From assembly GCA_036381415.1 (NCBI GenBank), contig DASVCV010000003.1, forward strand, positions 4,162-68,161: DNA of 64,000 bases, read 5' to 3'. Numbering within the stretch: the first letter of the stretch is position 1; every line of letters begins with the position of its first letter. Below are positions 11,924-62,972 of the stretch, in pieces. The notes below the pieces were generated by a model that saw only the letters and a program-made list of their open reading frames with translations, did not search any database and had not been told where the DNA came from. A program made the position numbers and the translations under genes. Source of the DNA: Patescibacteria group bacterium. Its GTDB lineage: Bacteria > Patescibacteriota > Microgenomatia > UBA8517.

Positions 11924-12059
11924 TTTATTTTACTTACTAGGAGCATTTTAGAACGTGGTTCTTGCTGGGACGATTTTGGACTAACCCTTGTTCAATCAAT
12001 CCCCTATCTGTACCACAGTATCAGCCTCAAATAAGAATGCTTATTAGTAAAAGTAAATC

Positions 12060-12440: not shown

Positions 12441-12621
12441 TTACATCAATTTTACTAGGTACATTAATAGTCGGAGTTCCCAATTGCACATTTTTAAGTG
12501 CAGGGAGTCCGTATACGAAAAATAGATATCCCACAACAACAAGGACAACAAGAACAATGATTAAGGTTATGGGTCCGCTTGAATTATCTGAGGATTGTGG
12601 ATTGTTTATAATAGTTGCCAT
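12418..12621 (-). CDS. small single-TM protein
   Basis: 67 aa with one TM (ITLIIVLVVLVVVGYLFFVYGL). Overlaps the downstream holin-like gene start. Confidence 0.3.
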   Translation of the reverse strand: MATIINNPQSSDNSSGPITLIIVLVVLVVVGYLFFVYGLPALKNVQLGTPTINVPSKIDVNVQQSNP

Positions 12622-12722
12622 ATTTCAATCACCCCCATCCCTGATAAGCTTCTCATATATAAAATATGTGGTCAAATTTTATGCTGAAGTTGTGCTTTGT
12701 CTGGTGGATGAAGTTAGATGTA

Positions 12723-13229
12723 TTACCGGTGTTCCCAATCTTCTGGAACTGGGTGTATTTCTAAATTTCTTCTTCTATAGTCTGATTCAATTTGCTTTAA
12801 GATTAGTAATCCATTTTGAGCATCATTTAATGACGGAAGCGTAGCAGGTACTATCATTCCATTGCTGTCAAGACTAACTGTAAATTGAGAACTGCCTTCT
12901 TTGTCTTTGAAATTAATACCTATTGTGCTAATTCTTCCATATTTGTCATAGACTTTACCAACAACACGGGCAACAAGATTTATTAAAACAGATCGTCCGT
13001 CTGGGGAAGTAAATTCCATTTCTGGTGTAGCGGCAACTCCACAAGGCAATTCTCTATATTTTTGCTTATGGTCTATTTGAACGTATTCTGTAGGACCGTA
13101 ATCTAGCATAATCTTTTTTGCATTACTAACAAATGTTTCAGCAGTTTCTTGTCTTTTTAATTGTTCTTGTTCTTGAAGAATTAAAAATGATACTTGGTCA
13201 AGGTGAGATCCTGTTCTATCAGTTATCAT
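12723..13229 (-). CDS. hypothetical protein
   Basis: 168-aa ORF with coding-like composition. Confidence 0.4.
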   Translation of the reverse strand: MITDRTGSHLDQVSFLILQEQEQLKRQETAETFVSNAKKIMLDYGPTEYVQIDHKQKYRELPCGVAATPEMEFTSPDGRSVLINLVARVVGKVYDKYGRISTIGINFKDKEGSSQFTVSLDSNGMIVPATLPSLNDAQNGLLILKQIESDYRRRNLEIHPVPEDWEHR

Positions 13230-42103: not shown

Positions 42104-42706
42104 ATGAGAAAATTTTTTTGGTTGGGTTTTGTTTTTTTGCTTTTGGGCCTAATATTTCCCCTCAGCGTAAGAGCTGCAGACTGTTATGAGTCTAACGTTC
42201 AACCTGGCTACAATGCCTGTATTAATTCATCAGGCCATAATAGTTGCGGGAAGGGAGCTGATGGTTTAGATGTATGCTGCAATCCTGGCATAATTGTTTG
42301 CCCGCCCGATACAGCTAAAGGCAAAACACAGGATCCACACCAAACTGTTGGTACAGAATACACAGGCATAACTTGTGGAACAGATGGAGAAGGAATAAAC
42401 ACAGCCATTGGTTGCATCCCATTTGGTGATTCAACTAAATTGATTTCATTTTTCCTTGGATGGGGTATGGGAATTGCAGGAGGAATTGCATTTTTATTGA
42501 TACTTTTTGCAGGTTTTCAAATTATGACATCTAGGGGAGATCCCAACAGACTTAAGGCTGGACAAGAGCTACTTACTTCTGCAATTGCCGGACTAATTTT
42601 ACTAATATTTTCTATATTTATACTAAGAGTGATTGGAGTTGATATACTACAAATAAAGGAAATAAGTACAAGTACATCAACACAAACAACAGGAGGTAAA
42701 CAGTAA
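42104..42706 (+). CDS. Cys-rich extracellular domain fused to a VirB2/TrbC-like pilin module
   Basis: Signal peptide, about 12 Cys in the first 100 aa, then FFLGWGMGIAGGIAFLLILFAGFQIMTSRGDPNRLKAGQELLTSAIAGLILLIFSIFIL. This helix-loop(GDP)-helix unit is shared with the seven downstream small genes. Confidence 0.5.
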   Translation: MRKFFWLGFVFLLLGLIFPLSVRAADCYESNVQPGYNACINSSGHNSCGKGADGLDVCCNPGIIVCPPDTAKGKTQDPHQTVGTEYTGITCGTDGEGINTAIGCIPFGDSTKLISFFLGWGMGIAGGIAFLLILFAGFQIMTSRGDPNRLKAGQELLTSAIAGLILLIFSIFILRVIGVDILQIKEISTSTSTQTTGGKQ

Positions 42707-43752: not shown

Positions 43753-44109
43753 ATGAAAAACTTGCTATCTGATATAAATATAGGACCCCTTCAAGGGGTG
43801 GGTCCTCTTGGGACGGGAATTAGTGATGCTAATGCTGCAACTAAGTTTAACGATGTCATATCCAAAATAATTGGAGTTATGACAGTTGTTGCTTTTATAT
43901 GGTTTACTTTTCAAGTTGTAATGGGAGCCATAAGAATTGTTACATCTGGTGGAGATAAAGGAGCATTAGAGGGAGCAAGAAAACAAATTACAACAGGCAT
44001 CATCGGGTTGGTTGTAGTTGTTGCAGCAATATTTATAGTAAAGCTATTAGGAACACTTCTTGGAATTCCCGATATTCTTAACCCAACAACAATTTTAAAT
44101 ACAAAATGA
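43753..44109 (+). CDS. VirB2/TrbC-like pilin paralog 5
   Basis: 118 aa. ...IRIVTSGGDKGALEGARKQITTGIIGLVVVVAAIFIVKLLG. Confidence 0.5.
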   Translation: MKNLLSDINIGPLQGVGPLGTGISDANAATKFNDVISKIIGVMTVVAFIWFTFQVVMGAIRIVTSGGDKGALEGARKQITTGIIGLVVVVAAIFIVKLLGTLLGIPDILNPTTILNTK

Positions 44110-45253: not shown

Positions 45254-48200
45254 ATGCTGAAGAAATCTTTCAAATTGTTTTTTATTTTAACGGTATTGTT
45301 TTCATTCCTTAGAATTGTTAATTCTAAAAGCAGTTTTGTATATGCACAGGCTGCTTGTAGTACAGCAGGTGCTACGTGCTGCAAAGATACTTCTAATAAA
45401 TATTTCTGCAATAACGGACTTAATCCCACCTCACAGACAGCACTTTGTACATGTAGTGGCAGCACACCTTCTACCCAAACTCCAACTCAAAATTCATCTA
45501 CCCCTGTGACTCAATCTCATGCAAATGGAGATAAGATTGGACCTGAACTTGCAGACCCGGCAGCTGGGGCAAATGTTGTAGATAGAAATGGATTCAAAGG
45601 AACAGTTGCTGTAATCAATAGCATTGGCGGTTCAGTCCAGAATACTGTTCCGAGCAAAAGTAGCAATCCGGTTGCCTTGAGGCTTCTTATGGATTCAGGT
45701 ACAACAATTGATTCAATGATACTTTATGCAAATCTGCTAAATGGATCGGGTCCTAGTCAATTTCCCAATGGGGCTATCATAATCCTTGGCAATGAGCTTA
45801 ATAACCTTAAGGGAGAATGGAAAGATACAAACTTTACACTTAGAGACGCAGGTGCAAGATATGCATTTATGTTTAACTCATTTGCGGACAATGTAACGCT
45901 TGATCGAGGAAAGTTTAAAGTGGCTCCAGCTCCACCTGATATGTACAATGGCGATTTTGATCCAGTGGAGTGGCTAAATGGATTTTTATACGGAGACGAA
46001 AAACACCGATATAGCTACGGCGTAGATTGTGACAGAATAGATACTTTAATTGCAAATGTTTTTCAAGTTCAGCCGGCGGCAAAAGTAGGAGGACAATGGG
46101 ATCAAACTTATATTTTTCTTCAAAATTATATAGGCAAAAAGTGTCCTGGAAAAACTGTGACTCATTTTGAAGGCTGGGGAGCTGATCCACATGCCTCTGT
46201 TTCAGATCAAGTAAACTTTTTAAACACACAGCCTTTGCCTGTTAACTCAGCTGCTACCTTAATAGTTGATAACTGTGATGGAAGTTTTGGAGGAAATGGC
46301 ATTAAACCGTGGCTTTACTATATTCCAAAAGCTCCTTTTGTTTACAAAGCTGATGGAACTCCCTTAGATCCTCAAACTTGTAGTGGAAGTTCAAATCTTG
46401 CAACAACTAAAAATCCTTATACTCCAAAAGACGTGCCATGTGATTCAAGAATTGGTGAATACTCTGATGAGTACCACTCACTTCGACCCTACCCTGCTTC
46501 TCCTTGTAAAAAAGAAGTGAGTGAAACAGCACTCATGTGTGGAAATGATTTAATTGTTAAAAAAACATTTAGTGATTTGGCTCCAAGTGGCGATTGTACA
46601 TCGCCGGGAGCTGATGGATCATTTTTCTGCAATTATAAATATTCAGGACTAACCGACAATGTAACCATAAATCTTAAAAATGCAGAGTTACCAATTCTTG
46701 GGAACACTGAGTTAGTACCAAATTCAACTGATAGAAACGGTGCTAAAAGAGCTTATATAACTTATGGTCAGAGAGTAAATGAATATGTCAGCTGGTACTT
46801 AAATGGAGCTATAGACAGAGCTGAGGAAAACTTTATTAAAATTCCATCTGATATTGACACTCTTCTTAACTACTCTGGACCTTTAAGGAAACTTTTTCCT
46901 TGGAGTGTTCAGATTAATCAAGGAATGAAAACAGTACAGCAGGTTTTTGATACGAGACACGATCAGACAGTTGGCTGCTATTCAAATGGCCAACCTGTTT
47001 CTTGTGCAACACCTGAAGCTTTAAAGGATACACAAGAAGTAAGGGCAAGTTTCTGGAAGAATGCATCTCCCCCATTAGAATCTGCATTTAGTGATTTTAG
47101 AGAATACTGGAAAGCTTATATGACTTGGAGAGGACAATTTTGCACTCCAAGCCTTTTAGGATTTTTTCTCTGTAGCCCAGATCTAACTGCTGGGCCAAAC
47201 TGGCTTGCTTCATTTTTCCCTTTTATTCCTCAATCCTCTACTGAAGATAGGACAGGGCAGGTTATTACTGACAACAATATTGTAGTGAATGGAAAGCAAC
47301 AACTTGAACATACTGTGCAACTTAAGGATGGACAAGGAAATGGAGGTACAGTGGAGAATGTTTCATTTACACCTGTAAGTGATAACCACAATCTGTATTT
47401 TGCACACACTGAAGAAGTAGCAACCTTGGGACAACTTTTACAAAGTACATTTGCTACTAAAAGTGATCCAATCAATGACTGGGAGACAAGACTTTCTCGA
47501 GATGTAGCAATTCATGATCCTGATGCAGTTGGAGGAATGCAAAAATACCAAACATATGGATGCAATACCCAGGATGTGCGTATAAATCCAGGAGACAATC
47601 TATATGGAGACTTGCCAAAAGATGGAAACCAGATAACTGGAAACTTGAACTATGATGCTACTTTTAGCTGCAAGTTTGAAAGGAAAACTGATCAAGCTTG
47701 TGTAGACAACTGTAAGGGAGATCAGACCTGTGCTGCAGCTTGTACACACACAAATGGGTGTAGTAAAGATATTTATGTTTCCCTGGCAATTTATACTAAA
47801 ACTCCCAAAGCACAAGAGATTTGGGACAGACTCGTTGACGGGGAAATGTCTGTTTTTAAAAAGATATTTCCTAAAGCTGGTCCAAACAGCCCTGTAGAAT
47901 CTATTAAAGACATTCCTGCTGCAAGCAAGGTTGTCTATACATCAACAACTGATGAAGCAAAAGCTGGAATGACTGGAAGAGGTGGAGCTGAGGCACAGCT
48001 ATTTTTCCCACATATAGGGAGCTTGGAAGAATATTTCTTAAAAGGTATACAACAGGCACTTAGACCGAAAGATGTAGGTGAAACTGCCATTGCTGGAAAG
48101 CCAGGAGCAATGTGTAGCCCAACAAACCCAACTAACAAATCAACATTTAGGGATACTGAAATTTCAGATGGAGTAATTGGACTTGCCCTACAAGTAAGCA

Positions 48201-48781
48201 GATACACTTGCACCCCAGCTGAACTTTTAATTGGAGTTTTGTCACAGGAAACCAGAGGAAGAACAGTTACTTCATTTAATCCCCTAACCCAAGAACCTAT
48301 TACTGGAGATCCTAATCAAAAGGTTGTAAGAACTGAGAGGTGTTTAAATGGAGATTTGAATGATCCAAATGGGTGTGGTCCCTATTCCTGGCATCCTTTT
48401 GTGACATATACAAACATGGCTGGCCAATGGCAAAAACAAGCTGCCGACTGCATTAACCACTTTGGTGTGTCATCCCCTCTTGACCAAAGAATTATTGCAC
48501 AGGCAATGTGCTACACTTCTGCTCATTTCTGGGGGTCAATTAGACTGAAGGATAGTTCTTTGCCTGATTGCACAGGAGAAAATCAAAAACCTTATACGCT
48601 TGACCAAGTTGATCCGGCTGGAGTGAGGCTTGCAACACTACAATTTTGCGGAGAAGCTGAAAATGGAGTTTTTACTCCAAGGTGTCAATCATATGCTGAT
48701 ACCTACAATACAATGATTGAGGGATACAAAGCTTCAGTTGGAATAGTAAGAGATCAGATGAAGGCATGTTTGACTCCATAA
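45254..48781 (+). CDS. large secreted Cys-rich protein (1175 aa), possible T4SS-associated surface/adhesin or cell-wall-active protein
   Basis: Signal peptide and many paired Cys (CSTAGATCCKD..., CVDNCKGDQTCAAACTHTNGC). The C-terminal region has ELLIGVLSQETRG, weakly reminiscent of lytic-transglycosylase catalytic-Glu context. Confidence 0.45.
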   Translation: MLKKSFKLFFILTVLFSFLRIVNSKSSFVYAQAACSTAGATCCKDTSNKYFCNNGLNPTSQTALCTCSGSTPSTQTPTQNSSTPVTQSHANGDKIGPELADPAAGANVVDRNGFKGTVAVINSIGGSVQNTVPSKSSNPVALRLLMDSGTTIDSMILYANLLNGSGPSQFPNGAIIILGNELNNLKGEWKDTNFTLRDAGARYAFMFNSFADNVTLDRGKFKVAPAPPDMYNGDFDPVEWLNGFLYGDEKHRYSYGVDCDRIDTLIANVFQVQPAAKVGGQWDQTYIFLQNYIGKKCPGKTVTHFEGWGADPHASVSDQVNFLNTQPLPVNSAATLIVDNCDGSFGGNGIKPWLYYIPKAPFVYKADGTPLDPQTCSGSSNLATTKNPYTPKDVPCDSRIGEYSDEYHSLRPYPASPCKKEVSETALMCGNDLIVKKTFSDLAPSGDCTSPGADGSFFCNYKYSGLTDNVTINLKNAELPILGNTELVPNSTDRNGAKRAYITYGQRVNEYVSWYLNGAIDRAEENFIKIPSDIDTLLNYSGPLRKLFPWSVQINQGMKTVQQVFDTRHDQTVGCYSNGQPVSCATPEALKDTQEVRASFWKNASPPLESAFSDFREYWKAYMTWRGQFCTPSLLGFFLCSPDLTAGPNWLASFFPFIPQSSTEDRTGQVITDNNIVVNGKQQLEHTVQLKDGQGNGGTVENVSFTPVSDNHNLYFAHTEEVATLGQLLQSTFATKSDPINDWETRLSRDVAIHDPDAVGGMQKYQTYGCNTQDVRINPGDNLYGDLPKDGNQITGNLNYDATFSCKFERKTDQACVDNCKGDQTCAAACTHTNGCSKDIYVSLAIYTKTPKAQEIWDRLVDGEMSVFKKIFPKAGPNSPVESIKDIPAASKVVYTSTTDEAKAGMTGRGGAEAQLFFPHIGSLEEYFLKGIQQALRPKDVGETAIAGKPGAMCSPTNPTNKSTFRDTEISDGVIGLALQVSRYTCTPAELLIGVLSQETRGRTVTSFNPLTQEPITGDPNQKVVRTERCLNGDLNDPNGCGPYSWHPFVTYTNMAGQWQKQAADCINHFGVSSPLDQRIIAQAMCYTSAHFWGSIRLKDSSLPDCTGENQKPYTLDQVDPAGVRLATLQFCGEAENGVFTPRCQSYADTYNTMIEGYKASVGIVRDQMKACLTP

Positions 48782-48833: not shown

Positions 48834-50525
48834 ATGTCCAAACTATTCAAGAAATTTTTAGCTTCGTTTTTGGTTGCATTTTTTTTGCTCATAACGGTTG
48901 CAACACCTTTTGCTCATGCTCAATCAAATGGTACTTGGTATTCTCAGGGTTTTGACCAGTGGTATGCCAAGGTTTATGACACAAGTAATCCCCAAGAAAT
49001 TTTTGGAGAAAGGTATACTGCAGCACAAGTACAATGGGTTTTTTATGGAGCTGCTTCTTTTTTCTTAAATTTAGCCTTGGGAGGCAATACCGATTTAGTT
49101 CAGTGTTCAATTCTACATGACGTAGGAAAATGTAATGCAGCGGTTCAAAAAATGTTTTCATTTAGAGACAATGCCATACCTGTAGCTGAAAAAAATGAAA
49201 CTCTTTTATCACAAATATTTGCTGACCGTCCCCTTTCAGGCATTACTTATGTAAAAGATTTAGGACGAAAATTCCATCTTGTTCCTGAGGCAAAAGCTCA
49301 GTCTGTCGGGTTTGGATATCAGGCACTCTATATTATTCAGGATGCATGGAGGGCAGTACGAGATCTTTCATATGTGTTCTTTGTGATAGTAATTTTAGTT
49401 TTTGCCTTCATGATCATGTTTAGAGTAAAGATATCACCCCAAGTGGTAATTACTGTTCAATCAGCGCTTCCAAAGCTGGTTGTTGGACTTATTCTTGTTA
49501 CTTTTTCCTACGCTATTGCAGGGTTTTTAATAGACTTGATGTATGTGATTATTGGTTTTATCAGTATTATTTTCTCCCGAATCGATGTGATCGGGTTTTC
49601 TAAAAATGCGGTAGATTATTTTAATTTGTTTACCAAAGGACCGGCAATTGGGCCAGTACGAGGAGGGGTTGTACTGTTTTTAGTCTATTATTTCCTTTAT
49701 TTCTTGGTAGCCTGGGTTCTTACTTTTTTCTTTGGCTTAGTCAGCTCCCTAACAAGTTTAACAAATCAGAATCTTAGCGGATTTATAGGTGGAGAGAGTA
49801 TGAGTGCTTTAATACTTCTAGTAGGAATAATTTTGCTGATTGTACTTATAATATTAATCATCATAAATATTTTTAAAATTTTGTTGATGCTTGTAAAAGC
49901 TTTCGCATCGATACTTCTTTTGACGATATTTGCGCCTCTTCAGCTAACGGTAGGTATGGTTGTCCCAGGCCTAGGTTTTGGTTCGTGGCTCAAAAGTTTT
50001 GTCTCTAAACTTGCAGTGTTCCCTGTAACTGGAGCTCTTTTTATGCTGGCTTTCTGGTTTTTGAATCTTGCAGTTGGTATAGCATTTGATCAAACTCGTA
50101 TTAACCTGGCAAGCGGAGCTCTTTCTGGGCTTATTGTTAAGGTTGACCCCAATGTAATTAGTGGATTTAATGCAAGTTTTACTCAAGGTTGGCCTCCCCT
50201 TCTAGGCGGACTTCCCCAAATGGCAGCACTTGTAATGTTAGTTGTAAGTTTTATGGTTTTTGCAATGATACCTAAAGCAGGAGATATGGTAGAAGGACTT
50301 ATTTCAGGAAAGTTTGCATTTGGTAGTGCAATTGGAGATTCATTTAAGCCATTCACAGCTTTTGGTGGAGCAATCTATGGAACAGCCCAAAAAGCTGGTG
50401 CTGAAGGAGCTGTTGGCTATATAGGCGGCAGGCTTGCACAACAAGGAGGCTTAGTCGCTAGAGGAGGTAGATATCTAGAACAAGCCGTAAGAAGAGGTAG
50501 AACAGTGAAGGAGGAAGAAGCTTAA
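48834..50525 (+). CDS. polytopic membrane protein, VirB6/TrbL-like
   Basis: Signal peptide, ~150-aa extracytoplasmic segment, at least 7 TM helices, Gly-rich C-terminal tail. The layout and position next to the pilin genes fit a VirB6 analogue. Confidence 0.4.
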   Translation: MSKLFKKFLASFLVAFFLLITVATPFAHAQSNGTWYSQGFDQWYAKVYDTSNPQEIFGERYTAAQVQWVFYGAASFFLNLALGGNTDLVQCSILHDVGKCNAAVQKMFSFRDNAIPVAEKNETLLSQIFADRPLSGITYVKDLGRKFHLVPEAKAQSVGFGYQALYIIQDAWRAVRDLSYVFFVIVILVFAFMIMFRVKISPQVVITVQSALPKLVVGLILVTFSYAIAGFLIDLMYVIIGFISIIFSRIDVIGFSKNAVDYFNLFTKGPAIGPVRGGVVLFLVYYFLYFLVAWVLTFFFGLVSSLTSLTNQNLSGFIGGESMSALILLVGIILLIVLIILIIINIFKILLMLVKAFASILLLTIFAPLQLTVGMVVPGLGFGSWLKSFVSKLAVFPVTGALFMLAFWFLNLAVGIAFDQTRINLASGALSGLIVKVDPNVISGFNASFTQGWPPLLGGLPQMAALVMLVVSFMVFAMIPKAGDMVEGLISGKFAFGSAIGDSFKPFTAFGGAIYGTAQKAGAEGAVGYIGGRLAQQGGLVARGGRYLEQAVRRGRTVKEEEA

Positions 50526-50678: not shown

Positions 50679-52538
50679 TTACCCTCCTCTTGTACGTACG
50701 ATTTTCTCTAGTGTTGCTACGGCTGAGTTTATAGCCAAGCGCCTATAAGGGTGAACAATTTTTACAATCTTATCTATTTGTGTTGGGGTTATAAGCATAA
50801 AAGGTTGGCGTGTTTCTGGATCTATACCTACAGGTCTTTGCAACATATTAAGAAATGTTCCCATTTGGGGTGCATCCCAAGTAAGAAGAGTTGCTTGTCT
50901 TGTAGCTTCTTCAACTATGCCTAATGCAAGATAGTAACGAAGTCTAAAAATTTCTTTGGTTGGGTAGGCGGGTATATTGGCATCGGGGATATCAGGAGGA
51001 TCAGGGGTTTCTGTTGTATCTGCTCTCATAGCGGCTCCAATCCAGCTGACGGCGTTGTCTTCAGTTGTGTCACTTGGTTTATAGTCTGATTTCAACAAAT
51101 TCACCGAGGTATTAACAACCGATGGCAGATAGACAGCTAAATACACAGCATAACTCCCTCCTGGAAGGTTTTTGTAATTAGGTGCGGATGTGTCTAAATG
51201 AAAATCAGCGTAGGTTTGATCATCGGGTCTTCCTGTTTTACCCATTAGCTTTCGTATACAAGTTATTTTGTAGACTACGTCCATAGCGTCTCTCATTTTG
51301 TGCATTTTGTTTAATCTCCCTGCTTCTTGCCATTTTTGTTCATTAAAGAGGTGAGCTTTGTTTGCATAAGCAGCTCTTCTTAAATAGGAGGTTGCAAAAC
51401 CGTCAATAAGTTCGAGAGTGATAGCAGGCCCAAAATCCCCACCAGTTTTAAGCTCTGTTCTTCTGAACTCTGAAAAGTAGGCAGCTTTTGTAATTGGATC
51501 TTGAGCATTAACTTCTTTCCACAATGAATATTCAAACGTTGCATGAGCGAGTCGTTCTGCAAGCGTAACAGCTTTGCGTATTTCTGGAGTATCACCACCC
51601 AATTCGCTCCTAATAAATTCATCCATTCTTCCAGCTTGATCGCTAGACATCCTTCCTGCGTACCTTATCGGTTTCCCTTTATCATCTACTCCAACAGAGC
51701 GTGCTCCTTCAAAGGCTGTTCTTTCCAAAACAGCGTGAGCTCTGGATATTCCTAAGTCACTTTCTTTATATAGATACTCTAAATCTTCACCTTCTAAAAG
51801 CAGTCCTCTAACTGTCATTTCCTTAACTATATCTCTCATCGAATTTACGAAGTCTTCAGGCCTACCGCTTACTCTTTCTACCAGAGTGTAACATGCGTGC
51901 AACCGAAGTCTTGCCTGGACTTCTTTTGCAACTTCAGGAGATAAATGCTGATTCTTTAAAGCATCTGCTAACTGCTGATAGTTGTGTGCATTAATTTGGT
52001 GATCTAGAGGATAGGTATTTGCTTCTATTTTATCCAATACTTCTCTAACCTTTTGACGCTGTAGCTCCGGATTTCCCTTGTCTCTTTCTATTTCAGATAA
52101 GTTCAGTCCTCCAATTTGAGTTGCTGACTCACCTACAGCTTTTCTAACTTTCTTTAACTCTCTTACAACAGGGTCTTCATGGGGATTTTCTTGTCGAGCT
52201 TGTCTTATGCTTCCATGGCCGGAAGTTTGTGCGAGTCTTTCCTTTTCTTCACCTATTACACCTGCTAATTTTGCCCAGTCCTCAAGACTAATTCTTTTTG
52301 ATGGGTCTTTGTCCATGACCATATCATTACCCCTATCTAGGATTTGATCTAAAGTCTTTAAATTTTTACTAGAAGGAAGCAATGCTACTCTAGCAAGATG
52401 TTGGACATTCTCGTCTTTTATTTCAACTTCTTTGCCTTTTTCAGAGTAGATTAAACCCTTTACTTTCTCTTCAAAGGACTTCGGGGATGGCAATTCTGGT
52501 GTGCGATTATTTTCTACTGGCATATTTCCCTCGGGCAT
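50679..52538 (-). CDS. large soluble hypothetical protein (619 aa)
   Basis: Long ORF with no TM segments and no recognisable catalytic motifs. Antisense to the flanking T4SS-like genes. Confidence 0.4.
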   Translation of the reverse strand: MPEGNMPVENNRTPELPSPKSFEEKVKGLIYSEKGKEVEIKDENVQHLARVALLPSSKNLKTLDQILDRGNDMVMDKDPSKRISLEDWAKLAGVIGEEKERLAQTSGHGSIRQARQENPHEDPVVRELKKVRKAVGESATQIGGLNLSEIERDKGNPELQRQKVREVLDKIEANTYPLDHQINAHNYQQLADALKNQHLSPEVAKEVQARLRLHACYTLVERVSGRPEDFVNSMRDIVKEMTVRGLLLEGEDLEYLYKESDLGISRAHAVLERTAFEGARSVGVDDKGKPIRYAGRMSSDQAGRMDEFIRSELGGDTPEIRKAVTLAERLAHATFEYSLWKEVNAQDPITKAAYFSEFRRTELKTGGDFGPAITLELIDGFATSYLRRAAYANKAHLFNEQKWQEAGRLNKMHKMRDAMDVVYKITCIRKLMGKTGRPDDQTYADFHLDTSAPNYKNLPGGSYAVYLAVYLPSVVNTSVNLLKSDYKPSDTTEDNAVSWIGAAMRADTTETPDPPDIPDANIPAYPTKEIFRLRYYLALGIVEEATRQATLLTWDAPQMGTFLNMLQRPVGIDPETRQPFMLITPTQIDKIVKIVHPYRRLAINSAVATLEKIVRTRGG

Positions 52539-52665
52539 GGCCTATTTTAACATTTTGTAAACGGTTTATCTAATTAACTTCTTGTAGTTTCTTTATAATA
52601 CTAAACTCTTTTATGTTAAAGGTGTTTGAAATTGCTTAAAAAGGGATTTGAAAGAAATGTTTCTA

Positions 52666-53424
52666 TTATATATTTGGTATTGGTGTCACTAACGCAGCTA
52701 TTGCAAAAGATCGCCCAAGTGGATCTCTATTCTCTGATCTTATGTATAAATTGCCACTTTCATCAAAGGGGCCAACGGTGGCAAAGTTGTTTCGCATACT
52801 GCCTGCATCATCTGCAGGAGTGGAAGTTATTATATGTTGGTTTTGGTCAAATAGTTTTTCACCTGTTTTTTCTAGATGTAAGATTGCTAGCTCTGCATAT
52901 TGATTTACTCTGCCCATCACAGCGAATGCGCCTGTTTTTAAATTTATTTGTTCTGAAAAGTGAGATATTCTTTTGGGCCAATCCCACCAAGGCCAGGCGT
53001 TACTTCCCGGAAGAAGAAAGGTGTTTGGTTTTACTGCTACTTCAACAGCCTTTGAAACATCCTCAAAAAAGCTTTCACGAGAGTAGTCCCAACCAAACTT
53101 TTCACTGCTATTTTTTGCAGAATCAATAATTGGCTTACCTGCTTCCATTAATTCTGAGATGGATGAACCTGTTAGTGTATAAACAAAGAATCCAGCCTGT
53201 TCCAGTTTTTCTAGCGTTTCTGGATTAAATCTAGAGACATAAACTTTTTTCTCAGAACTTCCATAGCCAGTAACAGGAATGTCTTTCCCCCGCTGCTTCA
53301 AAATTTTATTGATAACATCGGCGTGGTTAGAGTCATCTAGATTTCCAGTAGATCTTAGCTCTTCTTCAATTCTTCTCAGCATAGCGAGATTATAATAACG
53401 GTGGCGTAGAAAATCAAATATCAA
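52666..53424 (-). CDS. hypothetical protein (252 aa)
   Basis: ORF with coding composition. The overlapping + strand ORF 52626..53129 is Leu-rich and low-complexity, and is treated as spurious. Confidence 0.35.
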   Translation of the reverse strand: MIFDFLRHRYYNLAMLRRIEEELRSTGNLDDSNHADVINKILKQRGKDIPVTGYGSSEKKVYVSRFNPETLEKLEQAGFFVYTLTGSSISELMEAGKPIIDSAKNSSEKFGWDYSRESFFEDVSKAVEVAVKPNTFLLPGSNAWPWWDWPKRISHFSEQINLKTGAFAVMGRVNQYAELAILHLEKTGEKLFDQNQHIITSTPADDAGSMRNNFATVGPFDESGNLYIRSENRDPLGRSFAIAALVTPIPNI

Positions 53425-53459
53425 TATGCGTATTAGTTGGCAGGGGGGTTATGGAATAT

Positions 53460-54428
53460 TTAACACTTAACATTTTCTCCACAGTGTTTGCAGTTAGATA
53501 GCAATTTATGAGGTTCTCTTGTGTTTATTCTATGGCAATATGGACACTCAAAATTTAATGATCCATATTCGTCTTCTTGTCTAACAATCTTTACCATTCC
53601 AAATAAACTTTTGTTTTGCATTGAAAGAAGATCTCTGTTTAATACACCACACCCACCCCGAGAGAGGTTCCATCCCCTCTCCTCCATTCCATTTTCAATT
53701 CTTGCACCTCTGTGCAACAGATCCTCCTTACTAACTTTGGCGTCATTTAATACTTTTTTGCTTTCTTCTCTTGCATCTTTAAGGGCCTTCATTTTTAAAT
53801 GGTGAGCTTCTCCATGGCTAATTTTTTCAAACAGGACTGACAGTTCTGGAAAAGTTGATGAAAGGAAATTAACCCAATTGGAGTTTTGAGGTGGCAAAAA
53901 GATAGAGATCTTATCTCTTAAGTCTTCTGGGGCTTTTATTTGCTGACTTGGTTTATCAGAAAACTCTTCAAGCATTAAGAATAACTTTTCACAATATTCT
54001 GGAGTTACATCTTTTAATGGGATCCCATATGATTGAAGTACTTTTACTCCTAATATTTCTCTAACTTTTCCAATTTCAAACCTACCTTCCTGATAATTAA
54101 ATTCTCCTCCGGGCGGACTGACCCAGGCTAAAACTGTTCCAGGTTCTTCATCAACTAAAGCTTGCCTTATTATTAACCCTGCAATTTTTTCTTTTTGAGT
54201 TTGAGGTGTTTCATCTGAATAAAAATCTTTGACATCTCTTGTCTTATCTAAGCTGGGATTAACTACTAGTCCATTCGACAGATGAGCAAGAAAAAAGCTG
54301 TGTATATTTCCTGAAGATTCTATGACTAAAGCTGCAGTATCTCTTTCAAGAGCCTTTCTATTAAAGCCTTCTGACTTTTGATACCTTGATAGATCAAATG
54401 CTTTGCGTGATTCTAATATTCTTTCCAT
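53460..54428 (-). CDS. hypothetical protein with C-terminal zinc ribbon
   Basis: 322 aa ending CPYCHRINTREPHKLLSNCKHCGENVKC (CxxC...CxxC). Confidence 0.4.
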   Translation of the reverse strand: MERILESRKAFDLSRYQKSEGFNRKALERDTAALVIESSGNIHSFFLAHLSNGLVVNPSLDKTRDVKDFYSDETPQTQKEKIAGLIIRQALVDEEPGTVLAWVSPPGGEFNYQEGRFEIGKVREILGVKVLQSYGIPLKDVTPEYCEKLFLMLEEFSDKPSQQIKAPEDLRDKISIFLPPQNSNWVNFLSSTFPELSVLFEKISHGEAHHLKMKALKDAREESKKVLNDAKVSKEDLLHRGARIENGMEERGWNLSRGGCGVLNRDLLSMQNKSLFGMVKIVRQEDEYGSLNFECPYCHRINTREPHKLLSNCKHCGENVKC

Positions 54429-54537
54429 ATTCCTGCTCGGGATATTAGATTGTTAGTTTTCTGGCTTTACAGTTGCGGCACAGCTAGGGATTTGCACCCT
54501 ATTCCTTAAACACAATCTTTAAGTCATCATAAAATCT

Positions 54538-55359
54538 TTGTGTTTATTTTCAATAGGCAAATTGACAATAAAACCTATAATATCTATAATCCAGACCATG
54601 AGTGATTTTGAAAGAGCAAGACATAGACTGCAACAAAAAGCAGAAGAATCACAGAGAAGAAAATTAGAAGAGACTGAGACAGAAAAAATCTTCCAAGAGA
54701 CAGAGCAGTCAAGGTTGAAAAATGAGGCTGAACAATTAAGATTAGACCAAGAAGGGCTAGAAGCAAGAAAAAAAATACTACCCGCAGCCCAATTAAAAAT
54801 ATCTGAATTTTTATCTGAAATTAATGCTAAGCTTTTTTTAAATAAAGGTGCAATATCAGGCTGGAGAGTAGTTGAAGATCTACATGATCACACTACTTAT
54901 TACGAAGAGGGCATGTATGATAACTATTGTAGCTGGTCAGAAACTGAGCACCATAAATCTAAACAACTTGTAACCAGCCTCCATCTGGACGCCAATCAAT
55001 CCCTCTTCTTTTCTATACCTGTAATGAGTTCTACATTGGTAGAGAAAGAAAAATTCATAGAAGAGAGAGACTGGTTGATGCGTAAAACTGGGGTTGTCTT
55101 TTCCGATGGTTATGAAAAATTGTGGGAAGACAGATTAGCTTTGGATAAACAGTTGGGTCAAGTATCTTTAGGTGGAGAAAAATGTTACAGAGAAACTGCA
55201 AGGGTTCCTATTAGTTATTATAATGAGGAAGAGAGGAAGAAACTCTTTATTGCAGGTGAACCAATAGTTTGCAGATTACCACTTAAGGGTGACGAGTGGA
55301 ATAAATTTAGAGAACTAGTTCTTTATTATATTGCCGAAGAGTTGAATCTTCCTGATTAA
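54538..55359 (+). CDS. hypothetical protein (start probably the internal Met at ~54599)
   Basis: 273-aa ORF. The N-terminal 60 aa are charged and coiled-coil-like. Confidence 0.35.
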   Translation: MCLFSIGKLTIKPIISIIQTMSDFERARHRLQQKAEESQRRKLEETETEKIFQETEQSRLKNEAEQLRLDQEGLEARKKILPAAQLKISEFLSEINAKLFLNKGAISGWRVVEDLHDHTTYYEEGMYDNYCSWSETEHHKSKQLVTSLHLDANQSLFFSIPVMSSTLVEKEKFIEERDWLMRKTGVVFSDGYEKLWEDRLALDKQLGQVSLGGEKCYRETARVPISYYNEEERKKLFIAGEPIVCRLPLKGDEWNKFRELVLYYIAEELNLPD

Positions 55360-55454: not shown

Positions 55455-56498
55455 ATGGAACAGCATCCAGTACCACAACAAATTTCATCCTATCAATTCC
55501 ATTTGGTAGGAGACATGACTCTAAAACAGTTCCTGCAGCTAGCAGGAGGTGTTGTTGTGGGAATAGTTTTCTATGCAACAGGGCTACCTGGAATTATTAA
55601 ATGGCCACTTATTCTAATTTCAGTAGCAATAGGTGGAGCAATGGCTTTTATTCCTTTTGAAGAAAGACCACTTGAACAATGGTTTATTGCATTTTTTAGA
55701 TCTATTTACTCCCCTACTATTTTTGTTTGGAGCCACCAAGCAGGTACTGCCAAGATTTTTCAGGATGAAACAGTAGTGGGTGAAGTAATTGAGGCAAAAT
55801 CAACAGGTCCAAAGATTCCATTTCTTTCTAATTTGGAAGATAGTGAAAATAAATTCCTCTCTAAGATTTCATCATTTTTTACACCATCTTCTGCACCTAC
55901 TCCACAGGTTCAATTTCATCCTACTCCTGTTGTCCAAGCCCAACCTCCTGCTCCTACTCCTCAAGCACCTGTTCAAACTTCCCCTTTTGGAGGAGTACCT
56001 ACTGAAGGAGTTCAGGCATTTAGGCCTGCAAGTGAAGTGCAAAATGTGCAGCAAGCTAAACCTAGTCTTGTAATAGAAGATAAAGTTACAACTCCTGGAG
56101 TGACTGCTGATATTGCACCTTTAAGGCAATCTATAACTACTCAACCTGCTATGAATTTACCACAGGCTGCATTTTCAACTCAGGCTGCTCCCCCTTCTCC
56201 TCCAACAATTCCTAACACTATTGTTGGACAAGTTATTGATCCTGATGGAAAAATCGTTGAAGGTGCAATACTTGAGATTCGGGATACCTTAGGAAGACCA
56301 GTCAGAGCTTTAAAAACTAACAAAGCCGGGCACTTTTTAATTGTTACACCTTTAATGGAAGGAAGGTATGAGCTTATCACTGAAAAAGATGGACTTTTGT
56401 TTGATTCAATGGCTTTTGAGGCACAGGGAGCAATTATTCCACCTATAGCAATTAAAGCAAAAGGAAGACAAGTTGCTCCAGAGGAGGTTAAAAATTAA
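55455..56498 (+). CDS. PrgI/VirB3-like membrane protein with Pro/Gln-rich extension
   Basis: N-terminal YQFHLVGDMTLKQFLQLAGGVVVGIVFYATGL plus a second TM matches the PrgI/VirB3 pattern found directly upstream of VirB4 in Gram-positive-type T4SS. The remainder is PAPTPQAP-rich. Confidence 0.45.
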   Translation: MEQHPVPQQISSYQFHLVGDMTLKQFLQLAGGVVVGIVFYATGLPGIIKWPLILISVAIGGAMAFIPFEERPLEQWFIAFFRSIYSPTIFVWSHQAGTAKIFQDETVVGEVIEAKSTGPKIPFLSNLEDSENKFLSKISSFFTPSSAPTPQVQFHPTPVVQAQPPAPTPQAPVQTSPFGGVPTEGVQAFRPASEVQNVQQAKPSLVIEDKVTTPGVTADIAPLRQSITTQPAMNLPQAAFSTQAAPPSPPTIPNTIVGQVIDPDGKIVEGAILEIRDTLGRPVRALKTNKAGHFLIVTPLMEGRYELITEKDGLLFDSMAFEAQGAIIPPIAIKAKGRQVAPEEVKN

Positions 56499-57215
56499 AT
56501 GAAAATCTCACCTCCAAAAACCAATCCTATAGGGAATGTGGTCAAGAATGTTCCTTTTTTAAGCTTGCCTGATAGGCCACTTGTTACTTCTACTCAAGAA
56601 CAAATGCCTATTGCTGATATTACAGATGAAGGCTTGGTTCTTTTTAAAGATGGAGGAGCTTCAGTAATACTTGAGTCAACTTCACTTAATTTTGGATTGT
56701 TGTCTGAGAAAGAACAGGAGGCAGTTATTTATGCATACGCAGCACTCCTTAATTCTCTTTCCTACACAATACAGATTGTTGTAAGGTCTCAAAGAAAGGA
56801 TATCTCAAACTACTTAACCTACTTAGATAGGTCATACCAAAAACTAACAAATCCTAAATTGAAGGAGTTGATGGCAGGATATAAAAGCTTTATCTCAGAA
56901 ACTATTAAAAAGAAAAATGTTTTGGGGAAAAGATTTTTTGTTGTAATTCCCTTTTCTCCACTGGAGCTTGGAGTAACTAAATCTTTTTTGTCAGTTACTA
57001 AAAGGAAAGGGCCTCTCCCCTTTCCTAAAAGCTACATTATTAAAAAAGCAGCAGTGGCTCTTTTTCCAAAAAGAGATCATTTAATAAGACAGGCAGGAAG
57101 ATTAGGAATAAAACTGACACAAGTGCAAAAAGAAGAAATCATTACACTTTTTTATGATGTATTTAATCCTAGTGCACCTGTTATTAGATCTAATGAGCAG
57201 GCAACAAAAGCTTAA
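56499..57215 (+). CDS. VirB4 N-terminal (CagE/TrbE/VirB) domain encoded as a separate ORF
   Basis: MPIADITDEGLVLFKDGGASVILESTSLNFGLLSEKEQEAVIYAYAALLNSL...TIQIVVRSQRKD matches the canonical VirB4 N-terminus. The ORF stops 17 nt before, and in a different frame from, the ATPase ORF. Confidence 0.5.
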   Translation: MKISPPKTNPIGNVVKNVPFLSLPDRPLVTSTQEQMPIADITDEGLVLFKDGGASVILESTSLNFGLLSEKEQEAVIYAYAALLNSLSYTIQIVVRSQRKDISNYLTYLDRSYQKLTNPKLKELMAGYKSFISETIKKKNVLGKRFFVVIPFSPLELGVTKSFLSVTKRKGPLPFPKSYIIKKAAVALFPKRDHLIRQAGRLGIKLTQVQKEEIITLFYDVFNPSAPVIRSNEQATKA

Positions 57216-57231
57216 GGAGTAATTTTAAAAT

Positions 57232-59073
57232 ATGGATAAACAAGGCTTAACTACACAAAAACAAGTATTTACAAGTGGCACTGTAAATCCAAGTACAGGA
57301 GCTGTTGTACAGACTACTACTAGCGAGCAAAAACCAAATGTGGCTAATCCTGCTGCTGCAATTAAAGAAGGCAAAATTGGAATACAGGATTTAATTTCTC
57401 CAAAGAGTATGGAGATTGATTTTGAATATTTAAAAATCGGAGATGTTTATCTTAGAACTCTTTTTGTAGCAGGATATCCCAGGTTTGTTTCTGCCGGATG
57501 GCTAGAACCTGTTATTAATTTTGACCACTCAATGGATATTTCTTTTTATGTATATCCAGTAGAGGGAAAATCAGTACTTGATGATCTTAGGCGAAAGATT
57601 GCTGAGATGGAAGCTGAGATTTCAACGGATATACAGCGTGGAAAAGTAGTTAATCCTTCCACTCAGGCAAAACTTGAGGATGCATTAGTACTGCAAGAGC
57701 AGCTTGTTAAAGGATCCGAGAGATTTTTTGAGTTTTCTTTTTACATAACAATACCTGCTGCAACTTTGGAAGAACTTGATCATGTAACAAGACAAATTAT
57801 TTCAACACTAGGTTCCCTTCTTATTGTTGGCAAGAAGGCAACACTTGATATGGAAAGCGGATTTTTATCCACTGCTCCATTTGGAGTGGATAGACTTTCC
57901 ATAACAAGGAATATGGATACAACTTCACTTGCCACTACTTTTCCATTTACATCAGCAGAGCTTTCAAGTGACACTGGAATTTTATATGGAATTAATCCTC
58001 AAAATGAATCTTTTATTATTTTTGATAGATTCTCTTTGGAAAACTACAACATGACAATATTTGCTACCTCTGGAGCTGGAAAATCATTCTTTGTGAAGCT
58101 TGAATCAATTAGATCTTTAATGCTTGGAAGCGATGTGATTATTCTTGATCCTGAGGCAGAATATAAACCTCTTGCAGAAGCTGCAGGAGGAGAATATATA
58201 TCTTTTTCATTTAACTCCCCTTCTAAAATAAATCCTTTTGATTTATCAGCAATACAGGAAGAAGGAGAAAATCAACTGGGACTAAAAATTCTTTCACTTC
58301 ATTCTTTGTTTAAAGTAATTATGGGGGAACTTAATGCAACCCAGGAGGCACTACTAGATAGAGCTTTGATTGGAACATATAGGGCAAAAGGAATTACACA
58401 AGACCCTGCAACTCAGACAAAAGAACCACCTTTAATAGAAGATCTATACAAAACTTTAATTGGAATGGAGGTGCCTGAGGCACTTGATTTGGCAGCTAGA
58501 ATAGAAAAATTTGTAAAAGGCTCATTTGTAGGAATATTTGACCAGCAAACAAATATTGATATTAAAAATCCTTTTACTGTTTTTAGCGTAAAGGATCTAC
58601 AAGATGTACTTAGGCCAATTGCAATGTTTATTATCCTAGATTTTATTTGGACCAAGGTTAAGAAAGACATTAAAAAGAGACTTCTAATAGTTGATGAGGC
58701 ATGGCACATGATGAGATATCCTGACTCAGCACAATTCTTGTGGTCTGTTGTGAAGAGGGCCCGCAAGTACTACCTAGGACTTACCACAATCACCCAGGAC
58801 GTGGAGGACTTCCTTGCACAGGACATTGGAAAGGCAATTGTTACTAACTCATCTTTGAGAGTGCTTTTAAAACAATCTCCTGCTGCAATTGATAAAATAG
58901 GAGAATTGTTTTATTTGTCTCAAGGAGAAAAACAATTATTACTTGCAGCTAATGTGGGTGAAGGAATATTTTTTGCAGGGCCACACCATGCACCAATTAG
59001 AGTTGTTGCATCACCTAGCGAATATCAATTAATTACAACCAAACCTGCTGACATTATTAATCAAAGACAATGA
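57232..59073 (+). CDS. VirB4/TrbE-family T4SS ATPase (C-terminal ATPase portion)
   Basis: Walker A FATSGAGKSFFVKL, Walker B with the VirB4-diagnostic LLIVDEAWHMM, and C-terminal motifs. 613 aa. Its own AAGGAG RBS lies upstream. Confidence 0.85.
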   Translation: MDKQGLTTQKQVFTSGTVNPSTGAVVQTTTSEQKPNVANPAAAIKEGKIGIQDLISPKSMEIDFEYLKIGDVYLRTLFVAGYPRFVSAGWLEPVINFDHSMDISFYVYPVEGKSVLDDLRRKIAEMEAEISTDIQRGKVVNPSTQAKLEDALVLQEQLVKGSERFFEFSFYITIPAATLEELDHVTRQIISTLGSLLIVGKKATLDMESGFLSTAPFGVDRLSITRNMDTTSLATTFPFTSAELSSDTGILYGINPQNESFIIFDRFSLENYNMTIFATSGAGKSFFVKLESIRSLMLGSDVIILDPEAEYKPLAEAAGGEYISFSFNSPSKINPFDLSAIQEEGENQLGLKILSLHSLFKVIMGELNATQEALLDRALIGTYRAKGITQDPATQTKEPPLIEDLYKTLIGMEVPEALDLAARIEKFVKGSFVGIFDQQTNIDIKNPFTVFSVKDLQDVLRPIAMFIILDFIWTKVKKDIKKRLLIVDEAWHMMRYPDSAQFLWSVVKRARKYYLGLTTITQDVEDFLAQDIGKAIVTNSSLRVLLKQSPAAIDKIGELFYLSQGEKQLLLAANVGEGIFFAGPHHAPIRVVASPSEYQLITTKPADIINQRQ

Positions 59074-60859: not shown

Positions 60860-61873
60860 ATGTTTATGAATTTATCAAGCAGAAAAAGAATAATTATGTT
60901 TTTAGCAGCCTTTACTTTTTTTGTGGCTGTAATGGGATTTTTGTTCATAAGAGGAAGACAAAATGTTTCTCCTGCTAATCCACCTGCTCCTCCCCAGATT
61001 TCAACATATGTGAATCAGACTTTTCCTATAAAAGTACAGCTTACTAAAGATGATTTTAATTTCCCAACTTCCCTCCCCCTTTTATATAAAGGAGGTTCTA
61101 GTCCAATAACTTTAGCTGAAGCAAAAGAAATTGCACTAAAGTTTGGATTTACTGGAGAGGTGCAAGAGCTTAAGGATATTCAGGAAGGAATTGTCTACTC
61201 CTGGTCAAACGAGACGGCAGGGTTATCTATCAGACCTAATAGAAAGGAAATCAAATACACAGTAAATCAGGCTCTCTCAACTTCGATTAGAAAACTATCA
61301 GAACCTGAGCTTATAGAAAAAGCTGCTACATTCTTAGAGCAAAAAAATCTCTTGGGAAATGACCAGGCAAAAACAGCCTTTGTTTATTATTTTTCTACTC
61401 AGGCTAGTGGAACAGATGAATTAAAACTTACCACTATTGATAAAGCAGATTATGTTGAAGTTAATTTTTCAGTAAAAGCTTCAGACTATAAACTCCTTAC
61501 TTTGGATCCACTTTCTTCCCCTATTGGGGTTCGACTTTTGCCAGATGGGAATATCACAGAAGTTGATTTAGCTAAACTTCCAGAAATTACAAAAGGAGGA
61601 GATTTGTTTAAGATTAAGAACTATGATCAGTTTGTATCAACTATCAAGGAGGCAAAAATAGTCAGTCTTAATGAAGGTGAAATGTTAAGCACAGATCCAA
61701 ATGCCAATCCAATTAACAGTGTAAATGTAACTGAGGTTGAACTTGTATATTTAATTGATTCGTCATCTTCAAATTATTATCAACCTGTTTTTCTTATTAA
61801 AGGGACGGCTGATATTGAGGGTATTGGAAAATATATTAGTAGCTATATGTACCTTCCAGCAATTACGAAGTAA
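60860..61873 (+). CDS. hypothetical signal-anchored extracytoplasmic protein
   Basis: N-terminal TM, then a 300-aa soluble domain. The last gene of the cluster. Confidence 0.4.
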   Translation: MFMNLSSRKRIIMFLAAFTFFVAVMGFLFIRGRQNVSPANPPAPPQISTYVNQTFPIKVQLTKDDFNFPTSLPLLYKGGSSPITLAEAKEIALKFGFTGEVQELKDIQEGIVYSWSNETAGLSIRPNRKEIKYTVNQALSTSIRKLSEPELIEKAATFLEQKNLLGNDQAKTAFVYYFSTQASGTDELKLTTIDKADYVEVNFSVKASDYKLLTLDPLSSPIGVRLLPDGNITEVDLAKLPEITKGGDLFKIKNYDQFVSTIKEAKIVSLNEGEMLSTDPNANPINSVNVTEVELVYLIDSSSSNYYQPVFLIKGTADIEGIGKYISSYMYLPAITK

Positions 61874-62972
61874 CTTTTACAGGCATTATTAAGTGAAGAA
61901 AATCAGGGTCTTTTGAATCTCTAAATACCCCGGGAGAGGAAGTATCAACTAAGGCAATTTCTATTTCTTCTCCTTCTACTGCATTTGCTACTTCTTCAAT
62001 AAATTTCCAGTTAAAGGATATTTCAACAGATGGACCAACAACATTTGCATCTAGTTTTGTTTTCTGGTTTCCAACTGATGAGGATTCTGCACTTACGGTC
62101 AGACTCCCCTCACCTGTCGTGAGTTTAACAATATTTCCCTGATCTTTTGCAAAAACAGATGCAATTTTTACAGCTCTTACTAGATCTTCTCTTCCTACCT
62201 TTACTTTTGTATTTGAAACTTTGGGGATTATTTTTTCAAAATTAGGAAACTCCCCTTCTATAATTCTTGTAGCTAAAAATGCATCTGACTCCCCTATTCC
62301 AAAAACAACCTGGTTGGCTCCGGATTTTATTTGAAAAGAAAGAGAATCTGAACTGCTTGCAATTTTTACTAGTTCCATTAATGCAGGCTTTGGAATAACA
62401 ACTTTCCCCTCCCCTTTAAGTTTGGCTGGTATCTTTTTTTGAGAAAGACGAAAGCCATCGGATGCAACTAAAGTTAATGAGTCTGGTGAGAGTAAAAACA
62501 ACACTCCAGTTAAAACAGGTCTTGTTTCATCTTGGGAAACTGCAAAGGCGACTTTAGAAAGACTTTTAATTAGGTCATCTTTGGGAAGAGTCAAAATGTC
62601 CCCTTTTTCAAAAGATTGAGGAATTGAGGGGAAATCATTGGTATTCATTCCTGCAACATTTCCTAGAAATCCTTCTTGAGATATAGCAAGCTGCTCTTTG
62701 TTTTGAACAAGATCAACTGTTCCTTTAGAAAGATGGGAAACTAATTCAACTATTGTTTTTGCAGGAACTGCGACTTTGCCTTCTTTTTCTACTTTTGCTC
62801 CAATTGAAGTAGAAAGGGACATCTCAAGATTGGTTGAAAGAACATAGAGCTTTGTTTTATTTGCTTCTAAAAGAATATTTCCTAGAACTGGAAGCTGGGC
62901 GTGGGGGTTTACAAAGTGTGAGGCTTGGGAAAGGGCTTTGGAAAAGTTTTCTTGTAAAACAGCTGCCTTCAT
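61863..62972 (-). CDS. dnaN: DNA polymerase III beta subunit (sliding clamp)
   Basis: MKAAVLQENFSKALSQASHFVNPHAQLPVLGNILLEANKTKLYVLSTNLEMSL... 369 aa with three-domain clamp pattern. Confidence 0.9.
   Translation of the reverse strand: MKAAVLQENFSKALSQASHFVNPHAQLPVLGNILLEANKTKLYVLSTNLEMSLSTSIGAKVEKEGKVAVPAKTIVELVSHLSKGTVDLVQNKEQLAISQEGFLGNVAGMNTNDFPSIPQSFEKGDILTLPKDDLIKSLSKVAFAVSQDETRPVLTGVLFLLSPDSLTLVASDGFRLSQKKIPAKLKGEGKVVIPKPALMELVKIASSSDSLSFQIKSGANQVVFGIGESDAFLATRIIEGEFPNFEKIIPKVSNTKVKVGREDLVRAVKIASVFAKDQGNIVKLTTGEGSLTVSAESSSVGNQKTKLDANVVGPSVEISFNWKFIEEVANAVEGEEIEIALVDTSSPGVFRDSKDPDFLHLIMPVKVTS

Follow-up and report, generated by a model that had tools for sequence, protein, structure and literature searches.

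What is the role of four genes that lie inside a type IV secretion system (T4SS)-like locus and are for the most part transcribed against it? The question is raised by a stretch of 64,000 nucleotides (the window) on contig DASVCV010000003.1 of a Patescibacteria metagenome-assembled genome (GCA_036381415.1), whose proteins correspond to the NCBI entries HEX69771xx. The four genes, here called A to D, lie between a VirB6-like gene and the PrgI/VirB4 core of the locus. The positions of their open reading frames (ORFs) in the first-pass annotation were confirmed, as was the antisense orientation of three of them, and the starts of B and D were moved to internal ATGs (Table 1). Homologues were found for all four, which marks them as real genes rather than ORFs that arose by chance. 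The block is composite, not one cassette. From sequence comparison, we put at about 0.4 the probability that it represents a T4SS-linked variable slot, in which A would be a dedicated diversifying substrate or partner of the machine, C a regulator or adaptor, and B and D passengers.

The T4SS-like locus itself is known. It is derived from MPF-FATA (Quinonero-Coronel et al. 2025, PMC12102498) and is represented by SEML1_0006-0019 in S. epibionticum (Wang et al. 2023, PMC10633639). In Patescibacteria, the system has no relaxase and mostly no nearby coupling protein, is essential in Saccharibacteria, and has only been speculated to deliver effectors (PMC12102498, PMC10633639, PMC11665869). It may export proteins (PMC12102498, PMC10633639), and its role has been called "completely unknown" (PMC11665869). 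The window shares with the described locus PrgI/VirB3, a TrsD/TraC-like protein, VirB4, an M23 hydrolase, a VirB6-like protein, a VirB2-like pilin array and the proximity of dnaN/dnaA, with no relaxase or coupling protein in the locus. It differs in the antisense gene between virB6-like and prgI, which goes unmentioned in the published descriptions (PMC12102498, PMC10633639). The antisense hypervariable slot, the N-terminal motif of its proteins and the A and C families are undescribed in the published accounts of the locus that were consulted.

The large antisense gene was a constant feature of the related loci. Eighty loci were taken around the closest VirB4 relatives in species-representative genomes. 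In 16 of the 16 that contained both borders, a gap of 2.2-4.9 kb held one large antisense ORF (528-925 aa), and with the window, L001, L002, L004 and L091 added, such an ORF was present in 21/21 loci with virB6-like and prgI genes. The position, orientation and size class of the slot were conserved, and the arrangement persisted as long as VirB4 was at least about 64% identical to that of the window. At the slot position, the more distant Paceibacteria-type loci had same-strand membrane-protein genes and no antisense slot. Accordingly, the slot was seen in the Woesebacteria/Microgenomatia-type clade of Patescibacteria only, a clade of which we know no cultivated member. The presence/absence comparison in related loci, which had been proposed as a check, gave a different result for each of the other genes: C occurred in a subset of the loci, B in none of the other 84 T4SS loci, and D was rare. 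All A and C homologues with readable context were antisense to the T4SS, between prgI and the VirB6-like gene and near dnaN/dnaA (L001, L002/3, L004, L091, L093-95), and the two families were seen in the slot only. The idea of a separate inserted cassette is therefore not borne out for A and C, which are tied to the T4SS-like locus. It does apply to B, which occurs independently of the T4SS genes, the ground on which the first-pass reading would be refuted for that gene.

Compared with the machine around them, the slot proteins diverge far faster than any component, or are replaced outright. In identity to the window, VirB4 reached 75-87% in those loci, as far down as L014, that retain the slot together with the VirB6-like border. 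The corresponding values were 58-68% for the TraC-like protein, 42-52% for PrgI, 29-51% for the VirB6-like protein, which held the same position in related loci, and 26-40% for the 1175-aa protein encoded before it. For A, the identity was 42-43% in L001 and L004 and 29% in L014. In L002, L028 and L040, it was about 29% over one stretch of about 85 aa, with weaker patches, and nothing was found elsewhere. The clearest case was L091, where VirB4 was 84%, C 58% and the VirB6-like protein 46% identical to those of the window, and the 704-aa slot protein could not be aligned with A. The locus was also mosaic: L004 retains A (42%) with a very divergent C, while L091 and L002 retain C (58-60%), with A absent or marginal. 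That A outpaces every machine gene fits the effector idea of the first-pass annotation without proving it, and nothing supported the immunity proteins suggested along with it.

The A family was small. A word search among 5.8 billion clustered proteins returned three homologues (P0009-P0011), and more were obtained with hidden Markov models (HMMs). The HMM iteration gave only seven full-length members, located in L001, L002/3, L004, L014, L028 and L040, each of them on the opposite strand in the gap from virB6-like to prgI. An eight-sequence A profile in the word-indexed search produced fewer matches than the single A sequence. In profile-profile comparison (hhalign), the A family showed no similarity to the 13 other slot proteins (probability <1%), and a Pfam scan of 13 non-A slot proteins gave nothing useful. 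The slot proteins of 800-925 aa were considered as fusions of C and A and rejected, as they showed no match to the C-domain HMM and no zinc ribbon.

A short N-terminal motif was common to slot proteins that could not otherwise be aligned. Their first 10-15 residues followed the pattern M-(P/S)-(D/E)-G-x-M-(T/S/P)-P-E, for instance MPEGNMPVE in the window and MPDMTPE, MPDGMSPE and MNEGENDMPNE in other loci. The motif, written as a regular expression, matched 12/20 slot proteins and 5/853 other long ORFs of the same loci (7 if any Met start was allowed). Within the window, it matched A only. Furthermore, the motif was present in 3/3 slot-gene starts on contigs fetched later through C homologues (MPNDMSNSE, MPDSMTPE and MPDGPNMTPE).

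The slot genes also appear to be transcribed on their own. Most of them, including A, had an extended -10 element (TGnTAAAAT) 5-7 nt upstream of the ATG. Since the -10 of A ends 5 nt before the ATG, its mRNA is probably leaderless and A its own transcription unit. In 33/67 long ORFs of the window, a -10-like hexamer stood 4-9 nt upstream of an ATG that was at the start or close to it. This suggests that leaderless mRNAs are the norm in the source organism, although some of the matches arose by chance in an AT-rich genome. Because this placement is so common, it signals independent transcription and nothing more special. A promoter-like site stood directly before the start of each block gene. 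The total number of such sites in the region was not above the shuffled expectation (14 vs 13), so only their placement before starts is informative. The plus-strand promoter before D matched the sigma-70 consensus perfectly (12/12). It would give a leaderless D transcript and may also drive the downstream prgI-virB4 operon.

Gene A encodes a soluble protein (isoelectric point 6.4, no transmembrane segment), and no transmembrane segment was predicted in B, C or D either. The slot proteins in general were acidic (isoelectric points 5.2-6.4, with one exception), hydrophilic and essentially free of transmembrane segments, so they are not exported in the Sec manner. The part conserved within the A family was residues ~145-619, and the family had invariant R, H, E and D residues. 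The description of the block as lacking recognisable motifs held against Pfam, NCBIfam, PADLOC and PHROGs, in which A-D gave nothing above threshold; the sole near-match was that of B to phrog_23235 (E 0.0012), a family of unknown function. PDB sequence searches with profiles of A (4 and 8 sequences), B and C gave matches at chance level only. No housekeeping homology was found for any block gene. Structure prediction, also suggested as a check, was of little help for A. The AlphaFold2 model was all-helical with low confidence (pLDDT 50), and Foldseek found no match at E <=0.001 in PDB and BFVD; the hits were generic helical repeats that are not to be trusted. At the C-terminus, A has a basic tail, and its closest family members (window, P0009-P0011) end in a near-invariant I(V/I)RTR(G/P)G, which could be a second, C-terminal signal. 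The RTRGG tail was not conserved across slot proteins, several others of which end in KRR or in GGGGKK(R), the latter in L002 and L011.

Gene C was better conserved. Eight homologues were found among the same 5.8 billion clustered proteins, about 60% identical over about 280 residues, with an alpha/beta plus helical domain and invariant polar residues including WxSPPGGEFxY, LERDT and CGxLNxD. The zinc ribbon assigned to the C-terminus in the first reading was confirmed. In 12 sequences, C295, C298 and C313 were invariant and C316 was conserved in at least 90%, with variable spacers between them. The tails of the divergent members (L004, L008, L022, L027) also contained CxxC...CxxC, so that two CxxC pairs were conserved across the C homologues, and the L004 protein was recognisable mainly by this tail. 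In the family scan, the ribbon gave only a sub-threshold rubrerythrin-like match. Where present (L001, L002/3, L004, L008, L027, L091, L093-95), C always adjoined prgI and was divergent from it, the only exception being L022, a contig-end fragment with C on the prgI strand; in the window, D is inserted between the two. Two metagenome scans for further C loci returned the known contig only.

The AlphaFold2 model of C was of medium quality (pLDDT 66, predicted TM-score 0.58). Its top PDB and BFVD matches were all PAS/GAF/Cache domains, and all were weak (E 0.002-0.2, TM-scores <=0.34). C is similar to PAS/GAF regulators such as VqmA, which has a PAS and a DNA-binding domain, in these best though weak fold matches and in being divergent from an operon that it could control. 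It differs from them in the low TM-scores and high E values of the matches, in having a zinc ribbon and no helix-turn-helix, and in showing no match at the sequence level. A possibly sensor-like domain, combined with a zinc ribbon and divergent transcription from the operon, would suit a regulator or adaptor that acts on prgI-virB4 or on A.

Genes B and D behaved differently from A and C. For B, the true start is most likely ATG 53382 and for D ATG 54598, because the exact 238-aa and 253-aa sequences were present in a public protein library and each ATG lies 6-7 nt past a -10 hexamer. An exhaustive search gave about 170 representative homologues of B (clusters at 50% identity), 30-40% identical and about 200-230 aa long, and the family had no match in Pfam or PDB. 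Its members lay in unrelated contexts outside T4SS loci. Their neighbours included RuvX with sortase, and RNase J, and in Woesebacteria a tandem duplication was located close to type IV pilus genes. In the Woesebacteria locus L085 (10001-11146), the B-family protein P0029 has two tandem B domains and is encoded among unknown genes by a type IV pilus/type II secretion cluster and a two-component system. D represents a rare family with a charged, coiled-coil-like N-terminal region and a C-terminal domain. It had two library homologues (P0022, P0038) and one in L093, and its profile, like that of B, had no member in the other 84 T4SS loci. In L093, the slot itself contains the D-family gene, which is flanked by C and the large gene and runs on the strand opposite to them; P0038 is at a contig end with unrelated neighbours.

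Other slots held other small genes. In L002, a groundwater contig from JGI, the slot contained an AAA_14/DUF4143 ATPase and a HicB/HicA pair (11174-12984) between the C and A-like genes, and HicAB was found in the slot of this locus only. In the same locus, a PIN/MazE pair was observed beyond a 1317-aa protein. The slots of L091 and L095 had small membrane proteins between C and the large gene; by eye, those at L091 8476-8799 and L095 1679-2302 share NPVTYL(K/R)(I/L)WWKKV. Since different small genes occur in different slots, it is between C and the large gene that lineage-specific passengers gather. B would be one such unrelated passenger, and D probably another.

Taken together, these results suggest how the block may work. 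The block is best read as the local version of a conserved antisense variable slot, which splits the T4SS-like locus between virB6-like and prgI. A would be a dedicated substrate of the machine, or a factor in host interaction, that diversifies, and the N-terminal motif would be a recognition tag common to the slot proteins. C would regulate, or act as an adaptor for, the divergent prgI-virB4 operon or A, and B and probably D would be incidental. The large slot protein would thus be tied functionally to the machine, most likely in the role just given for A. A more specific proposal, which we consider somewhat unlikely, is that the slot proteins are polymorphic T4SS substrates recognised by the short N-terminal MP(D/E)G..M(T/S/P)PE tag and not by a C-terminal, coupling-protein-dependent signal, and that their hypervariable bodies track host-specific targets.

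The main rival to the reading of A as a diversifying substrate or partner is that A, like the proteins in its place elsewhere, belongs to the machine as a structural part or adaptor in the cytoplasm, such as a substrate-recruiting platform that replaces the missing VirD4-type coupling protein, with C as its partner. In favour of this, each locus of the clade has one copy in a constant place, and A is predicted to be helical and of cytoplasmic type. Moreover, in a sister clade (L046, L048, L051, L054; VirB4 about 62% identical), the gene that is antisense to and adjoins prgI encodes a coupling protein of the VirD4/TrwB type, which contains the domains TrwB_AAD_bind and TraG-D_C; a cytidylyltransferase-like gene comes after it. 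A thus resembles these coupling proteins in position and in size (about 600-730 aa). It does not resemble them in sequence: A as a degenerate coupling protein was rejected, since it has no conserved Walker A motif (P-loop), no transmembrane anchor and an hhalign probability of 0.1% against the sister-clade coupling proteins. In addition, A diverges far more quickly than the machine subunits and could not be aligned in a locus where VirB4 was 84% and the VirB6-like protein 46% identical. A stoichiometric part whose interfaces have to be preserved would not usually behave in this way. We regard a structural or adaptor role as possible and rather doubtful.

The remaining explanations are less probable. 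One is that all four genes form an independent cassette of defence, toxin-antitoxin or mobile DNA that happened to insert at a permissive site between genes of the T4SS locus. This would agree with the dispersed contexts of the B family, with the HicAB pair and ATPase in L002 and with the separate promoter-like site of each gene. The confinement of A and C to the slot, in synteny across many genomes, argues against it. There were no PADLOC or PHROG matches of note, and the screen for known defence or toxin-antitoxin systems among A-D, which also found no Pfam toxin-antitoxin domain, was negative. The repeat search around the block gave short chance repeats only, with no insertion scars, integrase or tRNA, and the GC content was only slightly raised (0.41 vs about 0.37). 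The cassette explanation holds for B only and is improbable for the block as a whole. About equally improbable is that the T4SS-like machine delivers A to other bacteria as a toxin, like X-Tfe of Xanthomonas, with B or C as the immunity protein. Polymorphic effector and toxin loci combine a conserved delivery tag with a variable body, as in Xanthomonas X-Tfe with XVIPCD or in the LXG toxins of type VII secretion systems. The slot is like them in having a short conserved terminal element, a variable or replaced remainder, a place beside a secretion machine and variable small neighbours, some of which adjoin A. It is unlike them in that its tag comprises only about 10 N-terminal residues and is not a folded domain, and in having no VirD4 and no consistent immunity gene. 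Furthermore, no toxin or immunity domain was detected, many loci had only the large gene and nothing that could be proposed as an immunity gene, B occurred without an A-like partner, and C was more conserved than A, with no co-variation. Least probable of all, and very unlikely in our opinion, is that A is a highly divergent DNA-processing protein (a novel relaxase or a single-stranded DNA-binding factor) that restores a role in conjugation or DNA uptake. Unknown relaxases cannot be excluded according to the literature (PMC12102498), and the A family does have invariant R, H, E and D residues. A relaxase (MOB) among A-D was searched for in Pfam, NCBIfam and PDB, and no HUH/relaxase domain or motif was found; the prediction for A was all-alpha, and hypervariability is unexpected for a catalytic DNA enzyme. 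Neither the toxin-immunity nor the relaxase explanation has positive support.

The interpretation of A as a diversifying substrate or partner has to be weighed against several points. The motif was defined post hoc, after inspection of the data, and the later contigs served as the test. The L091 slot protein has only a near-match to it (MSDNPQSMKSENPE), and part of the N-terminal conservation could mirror constraints on leaderless translation initiation. Undetectable similarity cannot tell extreme divergence from non-homologous replacement, and the predicted folds are soft clues because the models are weak (A pLDDT 50, C pLDDT 66). We infer the secretion of A from comparison, and a gene present once per locus resembles a core component as much as cargo. 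Known T4SS signals are usually C-terminal and dependent on a coupling protein, and the window locus has no coupling protein; no Pfam domain for a known T4SS recognition element was found in A. Finally, T4SS function as such does not require the slot, because in the cultivated S. epibionticum ML1, PrgI (SEML1_0010) is followed by the same-strand genes 0011-0013, with no antisense gene between PrgI and the VirB6-like genes.

The positions of the block, its borders and neighbouring genes are listed in Table 1.

Table 1. Positions of the block genes, their signals and the surrounding genes. Coordinates are those of the window unless another locus is named.
Feature	Position	Strand	Length	Remarks
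Gene A	50679-52538	-	619 aa	from ORF list
A C-terminal tail	50679-50700	-		basic, ...IVRTRGG
A N-terminal motif	52506-52538	-		MPEGNMPVENN; common to otherwise unalignable slot proteins
A promoter-like site	52544-52572	-		extended -10, TGTTAAAAT; ends 5 nt before ATG
Gene B, listed ORF	52666-53424	-	252 aa	TTG at 53424
Gene B, from ATG 53382	52666-53382	-	238 aa	
B -35/-10	53417-53389			own promoter-like site
Gene C	53460-54428	-	322 aa	end is CPYC...CKHC...C
C zinc ribbon	53463-53546	-		C-terminal, CPYC...x14...CKHC...C
Divergent promoter region between C and D	54429-54597			minus: TTGAAA-16-TATGAT; plus: TTGACA-17-TATAAT
Plus-strand promoter	54562-54590	+		ends 7 nt before D ATG 54598
Gene D, listed ORF	54538-55359	+	273 aa	TTG at 54538
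Gene D, from ATG 54598	54598-55359	+	253 aa	
VirB2-like pilins	42104-42706, 43753-44109			PF18895; more paralogous small ORFs up to 45211
1175-aa protein	45254-48781	+	1175 aa	between pilin array and VirB6-like gene
VirB6-like polytopic membrane protein	48834-50525	+	563 aa	left slot border; 10 predicted transmembrane segments
PrgI (VirB3-like), TraC/TrsD-like and VirB4 ATPase	55455-59073	+		right slot border; Pfam, orthologues
PrgI	55455-56498	+		PF12666
VirB4	57232-59073	+		PF19044, PF12846, PF01935
dnaN	61863-62972	-		
dnaA	from 63199	-		
Sister-clade coupling protein, L046	5677-7863 of L046	-		
Sister-clade coupling protein, L048	5589-7784 of L048	-		
Sister-clade coupling protein, L051 and L054				

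The machine genes of the window were assigned by Pfam scan, which found no relaxase or coupling protein in the locus. The TraC-like protein was assigned through relatives that carry PF26593. The VirB4 of the window belongs to the Patescibacteria clade, and the genes directly upstream of it encode PrgI/VirB3 and the TrsD/TraC-like protein. An M23 peptidase follows VirB4, and then dnaN and dnaA on the other strand; together with the pilin array, this proximity agrees with a Patescibacteria T4SS-like locus. The 563-aa membrane protein had no Pfam match, so the label VirB6-like is taken from topology and synteny. The 1175-aa protein was Cys-rich, with an N-terminal signal-like segment and no Pfam match, and had orthologues in related loci. 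In the 64-kb window, the minimum of cumulative GC skew was near 20-21 kb, at a switch of gene orientation, and dnaN/dnaA lay at 62-64 kb. Many GTDB records with a Patescibacteria-type T4SS locus (L008, L011, L017, L018 and others) were titled "uncultured Gammaproteobacteria", "Pseudomonadales" or, in one case, "Methanoperedens", names that are probably wrong.

The T4SS-like system is widespread in Patescibacteria and lacks the parts for conjugation, and the one species tested requires it for epibiotic growth. Two of the four flagged genes (B and, probably, D) are incidental. A gene that is always in the locus, separately transcribed, equipped with the common tag and faster to diverge than every machine part is a concrete candidate for the material that the machine handles or for the determinant of host specificity. 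Together, motif and slot provide a simple rule for collecting such candidates across genomes. If the slot proteins are tag-recognised substrates, they would give this secretion system, essential in cultivated relatives, its first candidate cargo.

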